In this document: one piece after another, positions 1 to 9,575 of the stretch
Layout of the letters: each line of letters opens with the position of its first letter
How positions within the stretch are numbered: the first letter of the stretch is position 1
From: Acidimicrobiia bacterium
GTDB lineage: Bacteria; Actinomycetota; Acidimicrobiia; Spongiisociales; UBA11373
Reading direction: 5' to 3'
DNA: 64,000 nucleotides
Assembly (NCBI GenBank): GCA_016215655.1
Contig: JACRIT010000016.1
Span: 28,626 to 92,625 of the forward strand
The notes under the pieces: generated by a model
The model's database searches: none
What the model was told of the DNA's origin: nothing
Seen by the model: the letters and a program-made list of their open reading frames with translations, nothing else
Translations under genes and position numbers: made by a program

Positions 1-270
1 CTTGTCGCCGACGCCTCCGGTGGAGTGCTTGTCGACCTTGGGGGCGGCGATGTGGGAGAAGTCGAGGACGTCGCCGGAATGGAGCATGGCATCGGTCCAC
101 ACCGCCAGCTCATCGGCGGAGAGGCCGCGCAGCAGGATCGCCATGAGCAGGGCTGACATCTGGTAATCCGGGATGGCATCGGCGGTGTATCCGGCGATGA
201 GCGCGCGAATCTCCTCGGCAGCCAGGGCGTGTCCGTCGCGCTTGCGTTCGATCGATTCGACGACGTTCAT
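1..270 (-). CDS. deoA: thymidine / pyrimidine-nucleoside phosphorylase, N-terminal part (3' end lies outside the window)
   Basis: Reverse translation from ATG 270-268 gives MNVVESIERKRDGHALAAEEIRALIAGYTADAIPDYQMSALLMAILLRGLSADELAVWTDAML...VDKHSTGGVGDK. This is the N-terminal helical domain plus the KHSTGGVGD phosphate-binding motif. Absent from the ORF track because it is truncated by the window edge. Confidence 0.85.
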   Translation of the reverse strand, partial: MNVVESIERKRDGHALAAEEIRALIAGYTADAIPDYQMSALLMAILLRGLSADELAVWTDAMLHSGDVLDFSHIAAPKVDKHSTGGVGDK

Positions 271-545
271 CTTCGGGCCATTGTGCCCACGCGGGAGCCT
301 TCGACGCGAATACCCTCAGCCCGGAGTCGCCGCGCCTGCTCGCGCTCGGCGCCGGGAACGAGCCTCCCTCCCGCCGCCACCACCCGCCACCACGGATACT
401 CGCCGTGCGACGCAGCCAGGAGCCGGCCCACGGCGCGCCCTGCCCCCGGATATCCGGCCTCCGCCGCCACCTCGCCATAGGTGACGACCTCGCCTGGCGC
501 GAGGCGCTCCAGGACGTCGGCGACGCGCTCCTGGAACACCGTCAT
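267..545 (-). CDS. alkyltransferase-like (ATL) / MGMT-family DNA-binding protein lacking the acceptor cysteine
   Basis: Last 92 aa of ORF 267..1415(-): MTVFQERVADVLERLAPGEVVTYGEVAAEAGYPGAGRAVGRLL..GEYPWWRVV. This is the MGMT C-terminal fold with PCHR replaced by PWWR. ATGA overlaps occur at both ends (268-270 and 542-545). Confidence 0.8.
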   Translation of the reverse strand: MTVFQERVADVLERLAPGEVVTYGEVAAEAGYPGAGRAVGRLLAASHGEYPWWRVVAAGGRLVPGAEREQARRLRAEGIRVEGSRVGTMARR

Positions 546-1159
546 GTCGTGCCGAACAGCCGGTCGCCCATGTCGCCCAGACCCGGACGGATGTAGAAGT
601 GATCGTTGAGATCGCGGTCGAGGGCGGCCACCACGATGCGGACGTCGGGGTGCTCGCGTTCGATGCGGGCGACGCCCTTCGGGGCCGCCACGACGCACAG
701 TGCCGTGATCCGACTCGCCCCGGAGGCCTTGGCCTTGCCGATCGCCCACGACAGCGAGCCGCCGGTGGCCAGCATCGGTTCCAGAACGAGCACCGTGGCG
801 CGCTCGAGGTCGGGGGGTTTGAAGTAGTACTCGATCGGCTCGGCGGTCTCCTCGTTGCGCTGCACGCCGGCAAAACCGACCTTGACATAGGGGATGAGAT
901 CGATGACCGCGTCGAGCAGCCCCAGTCCGGCGCGCAACACCGCGATGGCCACGACCTTCGAGGTCTCGAATCCCGTCGTCGCCTCGAGTGGGGTCTCCAC
1001 CGGGCGTTCGTTCACCGGCAGGTCGCGGGTTGCCTCGAGGGTGAGGAAGTAGCACAACCGGCGTGCCGCCGACCGGAACTCCTCCGGCATGGTGCCCTTG
1101 TCGCGCAGGACGGTCAGATAGTGCTTGGCGAGGGGGTGATCGAGGACGGTCAGGCTCAT
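542..1159 (-). CDS. upp: uracil phosphoribosyltransferase
   Basis: ORF 542..1336(-), start taken at MSLTVLDHPLAKHYLTVLRDK. It has the PRPP loop VLVLEPMLATGGS and the C-terminal YIRPGLGDMGDRLFGT. Confidence 0.9.
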   Translation of the reverse strand: MSLTVLDHPLAKHYLTVLRDKGTMPEEFRSAARRLCYFLTLEATRDLPVNERPVETPLEATTGFETSKVVAIAVLRAGLGLLDAVIDLIPYVKVGFAGVQRNEETAEPIEYYFKPPDLERATVLVLEPMLATGGSLSWAIGKAKASGASRITALCVVAAPKGVARIEREHPDVRIVVAALDRDLNDHFYIRPGLGDMGDRLFGTT

Positions 1160-1240
1160 GAGCGCTCCCCGGGAGGTATGGAGGGAGGGTAGTGAGGGGT
1201 CGGCCGCGTGTCGGCCGCCTGGTGGCGGCCTTCTGCTCAG

Positions 1241-1313
1241 GCGCAATTCGCAATTCGTCAGAAGGCGTGGATGGCGTCTCGACGCGTCTGGCGAATTGCG
1301 AATTGCGAATTGC
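1241..1313. repeat. heptad-repeat palindromic element E1 (GCAATTC x2 / GCGAATT x3 arms around a core CCAGACGCGTCG on the minus strand)
   Basis: gcaattcgcaattcg (1243-1257) is the perfect reverse complement of cgaattgcgaattgc (1292-1306). The 34-nt loop contains cgacgcgtctgg, the reverse complement of the core shared with the other elements. It lies between the divergent upp and ffh genes. Confidence 0.8.
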
Positions 1314-3360: not shown

Positions 3361-3858
3361 GTGAGCACCGACGGGCTGGTGCGGATCGGCCGGATCGGCA
3401 GACCTCACGGCCTGCGCGGAGGGATCACGATCGTCCCCGAGGTGGAGCTCGATCGACTGTCCCCGGGCACCGTGGTCTCCAGTGACGATGGCCGCGAATT
3501 CGTCATTGCCGCCTCCAGTCGGTACCGCGACCGCGGTGCGGTGGTGCAGTTCGTCGGCATCGATTCGCGGGAGGCGGCCGAGGCGTTGCGGGGGACGTCG
3601 ATCTCGATGCCGGCCTTCGCTCGGCCACCGCTGGGTGGCGGCGAGTACTGGGCCGAGGACCTCATCGGGATCACCGCGGTGGCCCCGGATGGGGCCGTGC
3701 TGGGAACGATCACCGCCGTGGACACCGGCGTCGGCCAAGACCGCCTCGTGGTGACCACCCCGGGCGGCACCGAGGTGCTCGTGCCCTTCGTCGGAGCCTT
3801 CGTGGGTGATCCCGAACAGGGTCGCATCGAGATCAGGGATCCCGGCGGTCTGTTCTGA
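3361..3858 (+). CDS. rimM: 16S rRNA processing protein RimM
   Basis: LVRIGRIGRPHGLRGGITI N-terminal motif, a PRC-barrel C-terminus, and synteny after rpsP-KH. Confidence 0.9.
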   Translation: MSTDGLVRIGRIGRPHGLRGGITIVPEVELDRLSPGTVVSSDDGREFVIAASSRYRDRGAVVQFVGIDSREAAEALRGTSISMPAFARPPLGGGEYWAEDLIGITAVAPDGAVLGTITAVDTGVGQDRLVVTTPGGTEVLVPFVGAFVGDPEQGRIEIRDPGGLF

Positions 3859-3887
3859 ATCTTCTCTTCGGCTCAGCCGTGTGCCGG

Positions 3888-3910
3888 CGTCACCGGCTCA
3901 GCCGGTGACG
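3888..3910. terminator. 10-bp perfect hairpin between convergent rimM and cupredoxin genes (putative bidirectional terminator)
   Basis: cgtcaccggc (3888-3897), loop tca, gccggtgacg (3901-3910). No T-tract, and it overlaps the cupredoxin stop codon. Confidence 0.45.
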
Positions 3911-4329
3911 GTGATCGTTCCCTGCATGGATCCGTGGATCTGGCAGACGAAGTCGTAGGTGCCGGGCTGGTCGAAGCTGATCTCGAAGGTGTCACCGGAC
4001 GACTTCTCCCCCGACGACCAGGATCCATCGACGGCACTCGCCGTGTGGGTTCCGCCGGTGAAGACGAAGGTCACCGTCTGGCCGACGGTGATCTCCACGT
4101 CGGCGGGCGTGAACTGGAAGTTCGCCACGGTGATGGTGGCGCCACCGGCAACGGTGGTCACCGACACCCCCGTCGTGACCGTGGTCGTGACCGTGGTCGT
4201 GGCAGTGGTCGTGGCAGTGGTCGTGGCGGTGGTGGTCTCGGTGGCGTCGTCGTCTCCGCACGCCGACACCACGGCGAGCACGGCGACGGCCAACACGGCG
4301 ACGGTGCGGTGCAGGCGCAGTCCGAACAT
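3898..4329 (-). CDS. cupredoxin (plastocyanin/halocyanin-like blue copper) lipoprotein
   Basis: C-terminal 143 aa of ORF 3898..5484(-): MFGLRLHRTVAVLAVAVLAVVSAC (lipobox), then a Thr-rich linker. Type-1 Cu ligand pattern is GGTHT ... CQIHGSM. Confidence 0.85.
   Translation of the reverse strand: MFGLRLHRTVAVLAVAVLAVVSACGDDDATETTTATTTATTTATTTVTTTVTTGVSVTTVAGGATITVANFQFTPADVEITVGQTVTFVFTGGTHTASAVDGSWSSGEKSSGDTFEISFDQPGTYDFVCQIHGSMQGTITVTG
4174..4233. repeat. five tandem 12-nt units encoding the (T-T-T-A/V) linker of the cupredoxin
   Basis: cgtgaccgtggt x2, cgtggcagtggt x2, cgtggcggtggt, read directly at 4174-4233. The period is in frame. Confidence 0.8.
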
Positions 4330-4415
4330 GGGCCCCTCCCGATGGTTGCGAGTAGCTGGGGAGGCTACCGCCGGCCGGGTCGCTACTCGTGCCGGCCGGC
4401 CGAGTCGGATCGCTC

Positions 4416-5414
4416 CTAGAACCGGGCGATGCGCTCGATGAGATCGACGACTCGGTTCGAGTATCCCCATTCGTTGTCGTACCAGGCCAGGACCTTCACC
4501 ATGGTCCCGCCCAGGACGATGGTGGAGTGGGCATCGAAGATCGACGAGTGGGGGTTGCCAATCACATCGCTCGAGACGAGGTGGTCCTGCGAGTACTCGA
4601 TGATGCCGGCGAACGGACCCTCGGCGGCGCGACGAATCGCCGCGTTGACCTCGTCGGCGGTCACGGCCCGCTCGAGTTCCACGACGAGGTCGACGGTCGA
4701 TCCGTCGGGCACGGGCACCCGCATCGCCATACCGTCGAGGCGGCCCTTCAGCTTGGGGAGGACTTCGGCAACGGCCTTGGCGGCGCCGGTCGAGGTGGGG
4801 ATGATGTTCTCGGTGGCGGCGCGGCTGCGGCGGAAGTCCTTGTGGGGGACGTCGGCGAGGCGCTGGTCGTTGGTGTAGGCGTGCACCGTCGTCATCACCC
4901 CGCGCTTGATCCCGAATGCCTCGTCGAGGACCTTGGCCACCGGGGCGAGGCAGTTCGTGGTGCACGAGGCATTGGAGATGAGGAGATCCTCGGGGCCCAG
5001 ATCGGCGTCGTTGACGCCGAGCACGATGGTGGCGTCGAGGGCGTCCTTGGGCGGCACGGTGAGGATCACCCGTTTGGCGCCTGCGGTGAGGTGCTTGCTC
5101 ACCGATGCCCGGTCCCGGAAGGCGCCGGTCGACTCGATGACCACGTCGACCTCGAGCTCCGCCCAGGGAAGGGCTGCGGGATCCTTCTCGGTGAGCAGAC
5201 GGACCTTCTGGCCGCCGGCGATGAGGTGGTGGTCGACGACCTTCACCTCGCCCGGGAACACGCCCATCACCGTGTCGAACTTGAGGAGGTAGGCCTCCAT
5301 CTCGTCGGAGGCGAGGTCGTTGATGGCGACGATCTCGATGCCGCGATCTCGCTGGGTGATGACCCGAAACACCGACCTGCCGATCCGCCCAAAGCCGTTG
5401 ATCGCCACCCTCAT
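4416..5414 (-). CDS. gap: glyceraldehyde-3-phosphate dehydrogenase (type I, catalytically complete)
   Basis: Starts MRVAINGFGRIGR. It has the active site SNASCTTNCLAP, plus TTVHAYTNDQ, STGAAKAV and WYDNEWGYS. Confidence 0.95.
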   Translation of the reverse strand: MRVAINGFGRIGRSVFRVITQRDRGIEIVAINDLASDEMEAYLLKFDTVMGVFPGEVKVVDHHLIAGGQKVRLLTEKDPAALPWAELEVDVVIESTGAFRDRASVSKHLTAGAKRVILTVPPKDALDATIVLGVNDADLGPEDLLISNASCTTNCLAPVAKVLDEAFGIKRGVMTTVHAYTNDQRLADVPHKDFRRSRAATENIIPTSTGAAKAVAEVLPKLKGRLDGMAMRVPVPDGSTVDLVVELERAVTADEVNAAIRRAAEGPFAGIIEYSQDHLVSSDVIGNPHSSIFDAHSTIVLGGTMVKVLAWYDNEWGYSNRVVDLIERIARF

Positions 5415-6445
5415 CGGTTGCCTCCCTCGAATCCGGCGAGCAGACCGATGGCGTCGACCACGCGAGCGGCGTAGCCCCACCCATTGTCGAACCAGGTGAT
5501 GCATTTGAGCATGGTGGGGTCGGGCATCATCGTCGCCAGCCCATCCCACACCGCCGAGTGGGTGTTGCCGATCACGTCACTCGACACGACAGGATCCTCG
5601 GTGTATTCGATGACCGTCGAGGTGGCAGCAGCCTCCCGGATGGCGGCGTTCACGGCGGCCTTGTCCGTCGGGGTCTTCAGGAACGCCACCAGGTCGACGT
5701 TCGAGCCATCGGCCACCGGGACGTTGAGAGCCATGCCGGCGAGCTTCCCGGTGAGTTCCGGGAGCACGAGCTCGATGATCTCCACCGAGTTCGTGGTCGT
5801 CGGAATGATGTTCTCGGCGGCGGCACGACTGGTGCGGAACTCACCACCCGGGACGTCGGCAAGGCGCTGCTCGTTCGTGTAGGCGTGAACCACCGTGAAC
5901 ATGGCACGCTCGATGCCGTAGCGGCCGTCGAGGATCTTGAGGATGGGCGCGAGCGCGTTGGACGTGTTCGAGCCCAATGCCACCAGACGGTCGTCGGGAC
6001 TGAGAAGGTGATCGTTGGCACCCATGATCACCGTGTCCATGTCTCCGGGGTGCTCTGGCGTCGAGGCGAGGATCACCCGCTTGGCGCCGCGTGCCAGGTG
6101 CCGGGCGCACTCCGCCTTCGTGCGATGTTTGCGGGTCGCCTGGACCACGATGTCGACGCCCAGAGAGGCCCAATCGGTGTCGCCGGGGTCGCGGTCCGCG
6201 AGCATCTTCACGCGTCGATCGCCGATGACGAGGTGCCCGTCGGTGAAGCCGACATCCTCCGGATAGCGTCCGAAGATCGTGTCGTACTCGAGCAGATAGG
6301 CGAGTGCGGCCGGATCCGCGATGTCGACGATGGCGGCCACTTCGATGTCGGACCGGTTCGCCACCTGACGGAAGACGTTGCGCCCGATCCCGCCAAACCC
6401 CATCAGCCCGATGCGGGTGGGGGGAGTCGCCTGCTGACGCGCCAT
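5411..6445 (-). CDS. GAPDH-like paralog lacking the catalytic cysteine (putative pseudoenzyme)
   Basis: Full-length GAPDH fold (IGLMGFGGIGRNVF, VVHAYTNEQRLAD, WFDNGWGYAARV). SNASCTTNCLAP is replaced by SNTSNALAP, STGAAKAV by TTTNSVEI, and MRVPV by LNVPV. An ATGA overlap joins it to gap. Confidence 0.85.
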   Translation of the reverse strand: MARQQATPPTRIGLMGFGGIGRNVFRQVANRSDIEVAAIVDIADPAALAYLLEYDTIFGRYPEDVGFTDGHLVIGDRRVKMLADRDPGDTDWASLGVDIVVQATRKHRTKAECARHLARGAKRVILASTPEHPGDMDTVIMGANDHLLSPDDRLVALGSNTSNALAPILKILDGRYGIERAMFTVVHAYTNEQRLADVPGGEFRTSRAAAENIIPTTTNSVEIIELVLPELTGKLAGMALNVPVADGSNVDLVAFLKTPTDKAAVNAAIREAAATSTVIEYTEDPVVSSDVIGNTHSAVWDGLATMMPDPTMLKCITWFDNGWGYAARVVDAIGLLAGFEGGNR

Positions 6446-6493
6446 GACGGCGCCATCGTACCGAAGTCGCGCATGGGCCCGGCCGCGGCTGCG

Positions 6494-7831
6494 TCAGGGG
6501 AGCGTGGTGATACCGGCCGTCACGACCGCCGGGTCGATGGCGTCGAGATCGAACACCCGATGACGGACGACCAGCCGGATCGTCCCGAGGGCGCTCCACG
6601 CCGGTGGAAGCGATGCGGCGAGGACCGCGGCATCGCCGGTGACGCTGAAGCCGACCTCGACCACCCAGGTCGTGCCTTCGGCCACCCAGAACGAGAAGCT
6701 GTCCACCACGACACCTTCGAGCGTGCTGCCGAGAACCGGTCCGAGGGCCGCCGGATCCGGGCTGAACCCCAGTGCGTTGACGTCGTTGATGCGATGCCGG
6801 ACGGAGGACGCTCCCATGAGCGCGTCGAGGCCCGCGGCGGATGCGTCGAGCGGCCACGAGGCGCATCCCGCGGCCATCGATCGCACTGCCAGGTCCCCGG
6901 CCCCTGCGGTGCGCCAGGTGGCGTCGTCGCCGGCGTAGGTGAGCACTCCCGACACCATGGCCAGGTCCACGGTGACCTCCCCCTCGGGCTCGACCGTGCG
7001 CACCCGGCACCGCAGGTCCGTGCCGGCGACGACACCGGTTCGCTCGAGGAGCCTGGTGTCGGTGGCGCCCGCGACGGTGATCGTGGTCTCGAATCGGTAG
7101 CTGGGCCGTTCGGGCGCCTCCGTGGTGACGGGGGTGGAGGCCAGCGTGGCGATGGCTCGCTCCTGGACATCCTCGGCGAGGTACTGCAGGGGCACACGCA
7201 GGTCGGTGCCATCGGGGTGTTCCAGCGCGGCGTACACGACGAGGCGGCCGAGCCGGAACAACACGGCCGTCTCGCTCATCGCCCCCGCATCGAGATCGAT
7301 GAGCAGGCCGATCGACTCCTCGCCGACACGGATCGGGAACTCGGTGGCGGCTCGCGCCGCGGCGTCCGGGGCATGGGTGCCTCCCGTCCGTTTGATGATG
7401 TCGCCCGCCGTGTCGAGGAGATATCCATGGGCGGCCTCGGCGTCGGCGAGGAGGTCGATCCAGACGTGGGCGGTGCCCGACTCGGCGTCCATCGAGGTCA
7501 TCACGCCCACCTCGCGTCGGAACCCCAGGACGTCGGCAGCAGCATCGTCCGTGTCGGCGAGGCTCCGGGTGATGAGGTCGGGGTTGGTCACCACCACCGC
7601 CTCCCCCCCGGGGAGCATCGCCGCCAGGTCGGCACTCGTCAGGGGGCGTGCCGTCGCGTCGGGGAGAGCGAAGGCCTCCACCGGCACGGCGGTCGTGGTC
7701 GACGTCGTGATCGGAGCAACGTCGGCAGGGCCGGTTGCGTCACCGGGGGCCGTGCTCCCGGTGGCGCAGCCGGACGCCACCAGCGCCAGGCATGCCGCGG
7801 CGAGGCTCACGCGGGGAAACGCCGACTCCAT
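6494..7831 (-). CDS. hypothetical lipoprotein (445 aa)
   Basis: C-terminal part of ORF 6494..8824(-), from MESAFPRVSLAAACLALVASGC (lipobox). GC3-rich coding signal. No recognisable domain. Confidence 0.7.
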   Translation of the reverse strand: MESAFPRVSLAAACLALVASGCATGSTAPGDATGPADVAPITTSTTTAVPVEAFALPDATARPLTSADLAAMLPGGEAVVVTNPDLITRSLADTDDAAADVLGFRREVGVMTSMDAESGTAHVWIDLLADAEAAHGYLLDTAGDIIKRTGGTHAPDAAARAATEFPIRVGEESIGLLIDLDAGAMSETAVLFRLGRLVVYAALEHPDGTDLRVPLQYLAEDVQERAIATLASTPVTTEAPERPSYRFETTITVAGATDTRLLERTGVVAGTDLRCRVRTVEPEGEVTVDLAMVSGVLTYAGDDATWRTAGAGDLAVRSMAAGCASWPLDASAAGLDALMGASSVRHRINDVNALGFSPDPAALGPVLGSTLEGVVVDSFSFWVAEGTTWVVEVGFSVTGDAAVLAASLPPAWSALGTIRLVVRHRVFDLDAIDPAVVTAGITTLP

Positions 7832-7869
7832 GGAATAGGTGTCGGGTGATCGCTGCGCCGCCTTGAGGC

Positions 7870-8859
7870 TCAACCCTGGCGATTGAGGGCGTGGCGGGCT
7901 GCCCAGCCATCGAGGCCGGGCCCGGCGGCGATGTGGACCCACGGGCCGACTTCGCGTTTGACCAGATACCAGGTGCCGGGGTGCAGCACACCCACGATCC
8001 GGGTGTGATCGGTCATGTCGAAGACGTCGACATCGGAAAGCACGTATCCCCAATAGGGTGCGGCCACGGGCTCGGGCGGAGGTTGGGGCGCCGGCTCCGG
8101 GGGGGCGGTCCGGTCGGCGGCCGGTCCCGTCACCACGGGCACGGACGGCGTCGTTTCGGTCGTGGAGGCGATGCGGAGTCGCCGGCGGGTGCGCCGCCTC
8201 TCCCGGGCAGCGCTGCCGAGGAGGCGGGCCACGGCGAACCCCGTGAGCGCGGCGATGGCGATGCAGGCTCCGAGTGCGGGATACGAGGGCTGGAGCACCC
8301 CGAACTGCTGCGCCGTCACCGCGGCGCCGGTTCCGGTGAGGATTCCGGCGAGGGCGGCGCCGACTCCGGTGAACCGGCGGCGTGAGGCGATGGCGCCGAG
8401 TTGCCCGGCGAGGCCGGCGACGGCCACTCCGGCACCGGTGAGCCCGGCAAGGGTGGCAAGGGGGAAGCGGCCGGTGATCCGCATCCATGCCTCGGCAGTG
8501 CACCCATCGGCCTCGCCGCGGATTCGATAGAGCCCCACCGCGTACGGGCTCAGTCCTCCGAGATCGATGGTCGCGGAGAACCCGGTGGCAGGAGTGGCGT
8601 AGGCCGTGGCCGCCGAGTCGATTTCGACGGGGCCGGCGACGATCGACACGCGGGCCGTCGTCGTGCCGCTCTCCATCGTCCCGGAGAACACGAGGGCGTC
8701 GGTCGTGGCGAGTTCGAGCGGGCTGCTCAGGCCATCGATACGATCGACGGGGACACCGTTGAACGTGGGGGAGCAGGATCCTTCCACGGAGGCGGAGGCC
8801 GGGGTGGCGAGCGCCGCCGGCCACGCCAGCACCACGAGCGCGGCGAGCAATCGGCGCAT
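7870..8859 (-). CDS. hypothetical membrane protein with signal peptide, 3 TM helices, Pro-rich linker and C-terminal SH3-like domain
   Basis: Signal peptide MRRLLAALVVLAWPAALATPASA and Gly/Ala-rich TM segments. The C-terminus YWGYVLSDVDVFDMTDHTRIVGVLHPGTWYLVKREVGPWVHI resembles a bacterial SH3 domain. Confidence 0.7.
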   Translation of the reverse strand: MRRLLAALVVLAWPAALATPASASVEGSCSPTFNGVPVDRIDGLSSPLELATTDALVFSGTMESGTTTARVSIVAGPVEIDSAATAYATPATGFSATIDLGGLSPYAVGLYRIRGEADGCTAEAWMRITGRFPLATLAGLTGAGVAVAGLAGQLGAIASRRRFTGVGAALAGILTGTGAAVTAQQFGVLQPSYPALGACIAIAALTGFAVARLLGSAARERRRTRRRLRIASTTETTPSVPVVTGPAADRTAPPEPAPQPPPEPVAAPYWGYVLSDVDVFDMTDHTRIVGVLHPGTWYLVKREVGPWVHIAAGPGLDGWAARHALNRQG

Positions 8860-8882
8860 GGAGACGACGATACCCTCAGGGA

Positions 8883-9575
8883 ATGCGCATCGCCGTCGTC
8901 ACCCTCTTTCCCGAGTTCTTCGCCGGGCCGCTCGGCGTCGGCATCGTCGGCCGGGCGATCGCCGACGGTGTGGTGGCGGTGGAGCCGATCGACCTGCGCG
9001 CCCATGGTCTCGGGGCCTACCGGCAGGTCGATGATGCTCCGTTCGGCGGCGGTGCCGGCATGGTGATGATGATCGAGCCGCTGGCGCGGGCGCTGGAACC
9101 GCTCGCCGCGACGCATCGCGTGCTGCTGTCGCCGGCCGGGGAGCCTTTGCGCCAGCCCACCCTCGACCGCTGGGCGGAGATGCCCCGGCTCACCCTGGTG
9201 TGCGGGCGCTATGAGGGGATCGACGAACGGGTCGCCGAGCACCTCGTCGACGAGGAGGTGTCACTCGGCGACTTCGTGCTCGCCGGCGGGGAGGCAGCGG
9301 CGTTGGCCATCATCGAGGGCGTCGTCCGTCTCCTTCCGGGAGTGGTCGGCAACCCGGAATCGACCCGGCAGGAGAGCTTCCGTGGTGAGGGGCTCCTCGA
9401 GGAACCCCAGTACACCCGACCGGCGGAGTTCGCCGGCTGGGCGGTGCCCGAGGTGCTGCTCTCGGGGGATCACGCTCGCATCGCCGCCTGGCGTCGCGAG
9501 CAGAGGCTGCGCCGCACCAGGGAGCGTCGCCCCGACCTGCTCACCGATTTCCCGGAAGACGGATCCGGCCGCTAA
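8883..9575 (+). CDS. trmD: tRNA (guanine37-N1)-methyltransferase
   Basis: MRIAVVTLFPEFF, DDAPFGGGAGMVM, VCGRYEGIDERV and SLGDFVLAGGE are canonical TrmD motifs. Confidence 0.95.
   Translation: MRIAVVTLFPEFFAGPLGVGIVGRAIADGVVAVEPIDLRAHGLGAYRQVDDAPFGGGAGMVMMIEPLARALEPLAATHRVLLSPAGEPLRQPTLDRWAEMPRLTLVCGRYEGIDERVAEHLVDEEVSLGDFVLAGGEAAALAIIEGVVRLLPGVVGNPESTRQESFRGEGLLEEPQYTRPAEFAGWAVPEVLLSGDHARIAAWRREQRLRRTRERRPDLLTDFPEDGSGR

Follow-up and report, generated by a model that had tools for sequence, protein, structure and literature searches.

Glyceraldehyde-3-phosphate dehydrogenase (GAPDH) ranks among the enzymes studied in most detail and is regarded as a homotetramer whose subunits are identical and all active. 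A 64,000-nucleotide stretch of contig JACRIT010000016.1 from an Acidimicrobiia bacterium (GenBank assembly GCA_016215655.1), hereafter the window, raises the question of why a canonical gap gene should be preceded, in overlap, by a full-length GAPDH paralogue without the catalytic cysteine. The presence of a catalytically disabled paralogue co-expressed with gap is supported by loss of catalytic residues, selection, adjacency of the two genes in 61/61 distinct pairs and parallel diversification of the two proteins. The features on which the analysis turns are listed below.

5411..6445, minus strand: Cys-less GAPDH paralogue (P0001), full-length, 344 aa (open reading frame and translation)
4416..5414, minus strand: canonical type I gap (P0002), 332 aa (translation), immediately downstream of the paralogue
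5411..5414, minus strand: ATGA, in which the TGA of the paralogue overlaps the ATG of gap by 4 nt (plus strand, tcat)
5421..5428, minus strand: Shine-Dalgarno-like GAGGGAGG, 6 nt 5′ of the gap ATG and within the last codons of the paralogue (from sequence only)
5966..5968, minus strand: codon AAC for Asn160, at the position of catalytic Cys149 (ungapped alignments)
5723..5725, minus strand: codon AAC for Asn241, at the position of Arg231, with MRVP changed to LNVP (alignment)
5480..5482, minus strand: codon GGG for Gly322, at the position of Glu314, with YDNEWGY changed to FDNGWGY (alignment)

The initial annotation had described the upstream gene as a full-length GAPDH paralogue without the cysteine, the gene directly downstream as canonical gap, and their junction as an ATGA at 5411-5414. 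All three statements were borne out: the product of the first gene has both GAPDH domains (Pfam Gp_dh_N, 3.9e-28; Gp_dh_C, 2.8e-45) with Asn at position 149, and the translation of the second displays the motifs SNASCTTNCLAP, VHAYT, STGAAKAV, MRVP and YDNEWGY. On the coding strand the junction reads GAGGGAGG-CAACCG-ATGA. Since the stop codon of the paralogue overlaps the start codon of gap, both proteins should be made together and in similar amounts, and the paralogue and the catalytic Gap would share one mRNA. A promoter and terminator scan of 3800-9000 gave 0 promoter-like sites and 1 terminator-like site, which was not above shuffles. A whole-genome PF02800 search yielded three matches, namely P0001, P0002 and, on a different contig, a type II GAPDH, and P0002 was the sole type I GAPDH with a catalytic Cys found in the genome.

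The identity of P0001 was assessed by alignment against the GAPDH and E4PDH families, as the initial annotation had proposed. P0001 has the GAPDH fold, shares 48% identity with P0002 across 332 columns (BLASTP), and lies under the cut-off of every NCBIfam equivalog matched at E<=0.001. For the type I GAPDH equivalog TIGR01534 it reached 309.3 bits, below the cut-off of 367.2, whereas P0002 scored above it (444.9). Identity as E4PDH (TIGR01532; 242.1 against a cut-off of 530.55) or as ArsJ-associated GAPDH (NF033735; 265.8 against 450) was ruled out.

The loss of Cys149 and Cys153 had been attributed to a 3-residue deletion. This part of the initial annotation did not hold: LVALGSNTSNALAP pairs gaplessly with LISNASCTTNCLAP, both in BLASTP and in phmmer searches against solved GAPDHs, so that Cys149 was substituted by Asn and Cys153 by Ala. 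Other changes are Arg231 to Asn, Glu314 to Gly and Gly209 to Asn; the TTTNSVEI in place of STGAAKAV and the LNVP in place of MRVP, both pointed out before, were read in translation and alignment alike. The RRSR motif is changed to RTSR with loss of its second Arg, presumably Arg195 to Thr with Arg194 and Arg197 kept in B. stearothermophilus numbering. Residue numbers of the classical scheme are those that we take to apply to GAPDH, the motifs themselves being read from the sequence; in this scheme Arg231 of MRVP is presumably part of the substrate-phosphate (Ps) site, to which it is usually assigned, and not of the Pi site. The Rossmann motif, previously described as kept, is indeed present (GxGxxG and Asp32), as are the base His176 (VHAYT), Thr179, Asn313, the S-loop and the 280s segment. 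A Gly replaces the usual Arg in GFGRIGR, a change found in 3/121 members of the close family described below.

An AlphaFold2 model of P0001 (21-sequence alignment) had a predicted local distance difference test score (pLDDT) of 90.1 and a predicted template modelling score (pTM) of 0.88, with low confidence only around the S-loop, and it superposed on 1gd1_O with TM scores of 0.90/0.93 and a root-mean-square deviation of 2.0 Å over 332 columns (Foldseek). A substitute Cys or other nucleophile in the pocket, which would have refuted the initial annotation on its own terms, was sought and discarded: the only cysteines of P0001, C113 and C315, fall outside the active-site segments, and the modelled chain follows 1GD1 along its whole length. 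Because Foldseek gave no residue-by-residue list, the placement of C113 and C315 rests on sequence alignment. A protein atlas search returned GAPDH clusters only. Judged by its residues, P0001 is a GAPDH-fold protein predicted to be unable to carry out GAPDH chemistry, having neither the thiohemiacetal-forming thiol nucleophile nor the phosphate-site arginines, namely Arg231 and the second Arg of RRSR.

Is such a protein maintained? The close family was defined as the best 120 of 8000 scored candidates from a 90%-clustered protein collection, plus P0001. These homologues are 64-94% identical to P0001, with E-values down to 1e-212. Asn149, His176, Asp32, Ser148 and Gly314 are each present in 121/121 sequences and Asn231 in 115/121. 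The ratio of nonsynonymous to synonymous substitution rates (dN/dS, Nei-Gojobori) against the nearest relative, G002, was 0.057 for the paralogue, the value for gap being 0.065; comparisons with eight additional relatives gave 0.12-0.24 for both genes, with dS near saturation. The paralogue gene is not decaying, and purifying selection on it is as strong as on gap; given E=1e-212 and a dN/dS of 0.057, chance resemblance is no issue. P0001 thus combines loss of catalytic residues with retained purifying selection, one of the features expected of a pseudoenzyme partner subunit of the prozyme type. Among the Asn-type paralogues there is also a subclade in Acidimicrobiia (L017, L019, L020, L107 and L113) in which His176 is changed to Lys and Thr179 to Ser, both residues of the catalytic dyad being lost.

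The distribution of the Cys-less form and its linkage to gap, which the initial annotation had singled out for checking, were examined next; P0001 belongs to one clade of gap paralogues, and these adjoin gap in all 61 distinct pairs. In a representative set of 152 sequences (the 150 best 50%-identity representatives, P0001 and P0002), Cys149 was missing in 26/152 (N 5, S 7, A 4, P 4, G 3, V 2, D 1). A FastTree of 135 rows contained a 24-row clade (SH-like support 99) with N, S, V, A, P and G forms and one Cys-keeping member, P0127. Eight Cys-less rows lay outside it: seven scattered singly among canonical gaps, and P0227 adjoining the clade with weak support. Two long proteins in this survey, P0124 (2089 aa) and P0154 (1455 aa), have 2-4 GAPDH-like domains each, with the Cys motif kept and signal-peptide-like N-termini; P0124 also has a PGK-like stretch, and both are unrelated to the paralogue clade.

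Species-representative genomes were scanned with the clade alignment, and the best 80 of 595 confirmed matches were analyzed, a sample and not a census. Among these 80 loci were 35 tandem pairs, of which one (L030) was kept out of the trees because its downstream gap matched only partly. The 34 complete pairs were from Acidobacteriota (8), Actinomycetota (5), Fidelibacterota (Marinimicrobia; 4), Candidatus Eiseniibacteriota (2), Bacteroidota (2), Thermodesulfobacteriota (1), Bdellovibrionota (1), Pseudomonadota (1), Lentisphaerota (1) and Planctomycetota (1), with 8 unplaced. Named carriers of these best 80 loci thus represent at least 10 phyla, and all carriers are metagenome-assembled genomes. 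One Marinimicrobia genome (G238, the source of L041) has two separate paralogue-gap pairs, on contigs C8 and C2, which may reflect a real duplication or a mixed bin.

Together with the window's own pair and 27 pairs from its relatives, and after removal of one duplicate locus from the resulting 62, 61 distinct pairs were available. The paralogue was upstream of canonical gap on the same strand in every one of them (61/61), and 59/61 overlapped or were within 3 nt, the distance from stop to start being -4 in 41 pairs, -1 in 9, 0 to +3 in 9, and 85 or 88 in 2. P0001 itself belongs to the clade by its branching, by its -4 nt coupling and by Asn241 and Gly322. Among 40 closer relatives of the window's genome, 30 had the adjacent pair, 2 had a paralogue at a contig edge, 6 had only canonical gap, and 2 incomplete genomes gave zero type I matches; residues were read in 27 of the 30 adjacent pairs, G028, G039 and G037 being left out. 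Around one Acidobacteriota carrier the pair was found in 26/41 genomes (G242 and G261 included). In 201 evenly sampled Actinomycetota, adjacent pairs were found only in the window's order, among the matches listed: sample members of this order had the pair in G000, G019, G027, G038 and G196, and none in G025. Outside the order, 177 genomes had at most one match at E<=1e-60 and 18 had at least two; of these 18, the listed second match was non-adjacent in 4, and for 14 the second match was among 69 beyond those listed.

The two proteins have also diversified in parallel. Pairwise distances among paralogues and among partner gaps were correlated (r=0.833, with 0/2000 permutations as high), the two subtrees mirror each other, and the pair was inherited as a unit. 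Paralogue distances are 1.96 times those of the partner gaps. This roughly twofold faster evolution, together with the loss of catalytic residues, is what might be expected of a decaying duplicate that survives only through its position in the gap operon; in G261 (L119, G261:C12:42400-45200) the Acidobacteriota copy is even split over three frames within ~100 nt next to an intact downstream gap, as either a pseudogene or an assembly error. However, the dN/dS of 0.057 equals that of gap, the best 120 homologues remain 64-94% identical, frames are open without internal stops in the 61 pairs parsed from DNA, and the clade occurs in at least 10 named phyla. Decay is therefore close to refuted, and we give it hardly any credence.

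Which losses define the clade as a whole? In the 61 paralogues, position 231 is occupied by Asn in 58, Gly in 2 and His in 1, and position 314 by Gly in 56, Ala in 3 and Ser in 1, with a gap in 1. Position 149 is far more varied (Asn 32, Ser 13, Cys 5, Ala 5, Ile 2, Pro 2, Val 2), and position 176 is His in 56 and Lys in 5. On a paralogue-only tree the minimum number of changes was 3 for Cys versus non-Cys, 11 for residue identity at 149 and 1 for His to Lys. The whole clade is marked by Arg231 to Asn and Glu314 to Gly, whereas the thiol was replaced repeatedly, by six unrelated residues. Given the variation at 149 and the Lys at 176 in 5/61, no conserved nucleophile or base can underlie whatever function the clade shares, and the repeated replacement of the thiol suggests that the selected function never depended on it. 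We infer that the direction of change at 149 was loss and not regain.

These data also bear on the possibility that the paralogues are enzymes with a different chemistry, either Cys-independent and NAD-linked or, for the Cys-bearing members, dehydrogenases of a substrate without a phosphate held by Arg231. Five of the 61 paralogues keep Cys149, His176 and, in the numbering that we assume, Arg195; Asn149 is invariant (121/121) in the window's own family; and His176, Ser148, Thr150 and Thr179 are conserved. Yet seven residues occur at 149 across the clade, Ala, Val, Ile and Pro among them, and His176 is Lys in the Acidimicrobiia subclade that keeps Asn149. In addition, E94, G97, F99 and P121, which we take to line the cofactor pocket, have lost constraint, and P0001 falls below every equivalog cut-off mentioned above. 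We consider a new chemistry quite improbable.

What has been retained was examined by comparing the conservation footprint of the 61 paralogues with that of 106 canonical gaps (45 solitary gaps besides the 61 partner gaps). The two sets have 52 invariant positions in common. They include, in P0002 numbering, G7, F8, G9, R10, G12, R13, D33, D188, R195, R198, N203, P206, V280, S281 and D283, and thereby the Rossmann motif and Asp32; Ser148, Thr150, His176 and Thr179 of the classical scheme are also among them. The S-loop residues (D188, R195, R198, N203 and P206) and V280, S281 and D283 belong to what we take to be the inter-subunit contact segments of GAPDH. Clade-wide, R232N and E315G are the sole sites at which a different residue is itself conserved, and 30 positions conserved in canonical gaps are without constraint in the paralogues, including C151, T153, R196, G210, E94, G97, F99 and P121. 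When the comparison with the 106 canonical gaps was restricted to the Asn-type family, 18 positions surrounding the pocket were at least 90% conserved yet carried a different residue (P0002 numbering):

E94Q, G97R, F99H, P121T, N148L, A149G, C151N, T153S, C155A
A160L, G172A, H191G, A211S, A214I, R232N, Y312F, E315G, S319A

Such a pattern indicates a pocket that was remodelled and held, not eroded.

A remodelled pocket would also suit a protein that acts outside the Gap tetramer, namely a stand-alone binding or regulatory protein for a nucleotide, metabolite or nucleic acid that is merely co-expressed with gap. The invariant Rossmann motif and Asp32 agree with this explanation, as do the 18 different-but-conserved positions with their basic run Q-A-T-R-K-H-R for E-S-T-G-x-F-R and the existence of four relatives that have gap without the paralogue; the authors of the trypanosome GAPDH-like study raise, in the portion of the article at hand, kept ligand binding at the adenosine site (PMC4106842). 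Against it stand the placement of 59/61 pairs within 3 nt and the parallel diversification, which together form the pattern that we would presumably expect of subunits of one complex. In addition, the residues that we take to be subunit contacts are among the best conserved. A stand-alone binder is, in our judgement, rather unlikely.

The reading that we favour, and to which we give about an even chance, is that the paralogue assembles together with Gap as a subunit that takes no part in catalysis but probably still binds a nucleotide. It would join Gap in a mixed tetramer and may tune or stabilize the enzyme there.

The history of the pair was examined in an IQ-TREE phylogeny of 93 rows. The 36 paralogues and 57 canonical gaps were split with a Shimodaira-Hasegawa-like approximate likelihood ratio test (SH-aLRT) support of 99.7. 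The 35 partner gaps fell on one side of a branch with a support of 81.6, which is not decisive, and the 22 solitary gaps on one side of a branch with a support of 98. Uniting all 12 Actinomycetota gaps was rejected by the approximately unbiased (AU) test (p-AU 0.017), a value to be taken cautiously because the group was picked after viewing the tree. Taken together, the tree, the AU test and the Actinomycetota survey suggest that the window's order acquired the two-gene module rather than inheriting the usual actinobacterial gap.

Several observations weigh against a partner subunit. In four genomes from the window's order (G017, G029, G030 and G040) there is a lone gap, 64-69% identical to P0002, and neither a paralogue nor a remnant was found in the ~2 kb upstream of it. 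These four relatives argue against an obligate partnership; in their lineages the partner was either dispensable or never present. The best tree nests their gaps among the Acidimicrobiia partner gaps, which would imply at least two losses of the paralogue, and an alternative that holds them outside the partner gaps was not rejected (p-AU 0.33). Furthermore, the retained interface residues would fit homotetramers equally well, the conserved and remodelled pocket would agree as well with a new ligand or with catalysis of a new kind, and 5/61 paralogues retain Cys149 and His176 and may still be enzymes.

Two further lines that might have linked the proteins physically also failed. Y42, L186 and A187 of Gap (P0002 numbering) are present in 35/35 partnered gaps, the 27 unpartnered ones having mostly H, I and L. 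However, lone Acidobacteriota gaps carry Y42 and L186, two lone Acidimicrobiia gaps carry A187, and of the 3 independent contrasts in the tree just 1 was on supported branches; the idea that these residues track the partner is thus unsupported. No genuine paralogue-gap fusion was found among 15 longer hits. Three of the 15 (P0273, P0274 and P0275), all singletons, resembled fusions and were read as frame-shifted: the first GAPDH match of P0273 and of P0274 stops at about residue 240-250, after which ~90 residues without GAPDH similarity lead into the gap frame, and P0275 is more degenerate.

A broader proposal can be made, which we put forward only tentatively. Glycolytic GAPDH in these bacteria might be a two-gene enzyme, a mixed tetramer in which catalytic Gap is joined by a dead subunit that senses a ligand via its remodelled cofactor pocket and thereby sets the cofactor affinity of the enzyme, its cooperativity or its sensitivity to redox state. 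On this view a single tandem duplication would have produced the module, which would then have travelled as a unit, in part by horizontal transfer, and would have taken the place of the usual actinobacterial gap in the Acidimicrobiia order of the window.

The surroundings of the pair were also inspected. The genes lie in a minus-strand block between rimM (3361-3858, plus strand) and trmD (8883-9575, plus strand), which are ordinarily neighbours. The block extends from a cupredoxin lipoprotein gene (3898-4329) to two open reading frames without Pfam match (6494-7831 and 7870-8859), and the pair adjoins trmD or rimM in five relatives too (G002, G001, G004, G019 and G024). The product of 3898-4329 (minus strand) is a small cupredoxin/plastocyanin-like lipoprotein (PF13473, 1e-09; PF00127, 8.3e-09) whose signal peptide is lipobox-like and whose long linker is rich in Thr and Ala (ATTT repeats). 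Outside the window, contig C53 of the same genome encodes a type II (archaeal-type) phosphorylating GAPDH (L003, 1255-2277, minus strand; NF003251, 378.6 bits against a cut-off of 185) abutting a second PGK gene (26-1252, minus strand); the bacterial-type PGK is on contig C10. Type II GAPDH was above the cut-off in 14/41 genomes (this one and its 40 relatives).

If the favoured reading is true, a dead twin coupled to gap in uncultured bacteria of at least ten phyla would be an overlooked regulatory or structural partner of GAPDH. Some members are named "type I glyceraldehyde-3-phosphate dehydrogenase" or "glyceraldehyde 3-phosphate dehydrogenase" in public records, and metabolic reconstructions built on these entries include, as a GAPDH, a protein that is almost certainly none. 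With Arg231 and Glu314 lost first and Cys lost later several times, the clade also offers a natural series for studying the passage from enzyme to pseudoenzyme. The initial annotation knew of no characterized bacterial case, and we likewise found no bacterial gap-coupled Cys-less GAPDH partner in literature searches, which did not cover most subscription journals. New here are the clade marks at 231 and 314, the repeated replacement of Cys, the parallel diversification, the presence of the pair, among the Actinomycetota matches listed, in the window's order only, and the four lone-gap relatives. In the available part of a review of aldehyde dehydrogenase superfamilies, most of the GapDH superfamily's members are described as having an essential Cys, and a pseudoenzyme is named only for ALDH16 (PMC12041015).

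How does the pair compare with known systems? With type I GAPDH (GapA; TIGR01534; EC 1.2.1.12; e.g., 1GD1 of B. stearothermophilus) the paralogue has domains and fold in common, but unlike it lacks Cys149, Cys153, Arg231, Glu314, Gly209 and the second Arg of RRSR and scores under the TIGR01534 cut-off. Chloroplast GapA/GapB is an A2B2 GAPDH tetramer of two paralogous subunits, one of them regulatory; GapB is catalytically active and regulates via a C-terminal Cys-bearing extension, whereas the window protein has no active-site Cys and only a 6-residue tail past the end of gap. Dead paralogues that work with an active enzyme include the AdoMetDC prozyme and, as far as the accessible account goes, plant PDX1.2; the excerpted trypanosome study describes T. 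brucei HXK2 with HXK1 in the same terms (PMC4106842). Unlike HXK2, PDX1.2 and the prozyme, the GAPDH pair is known from genes alone, is bacterial and forms one translational unit. The closest likeness in the same protein family is the trypanosome flagellar TbGAPDHL, described in the available sections of that study as a GAPDH homologue predicted to be catalytically inactive, with the adenosine part of the cofactor site possibly retained (PMC4106842). According to the same sections, TbGAPDHL is a eukaryotic component of the flagellar cytoskeleton whose gene is not beside an active GAPDH, and its orthologues are poorly conserved (PMC4106842), whereas the family of the window is constrained like gap itself.

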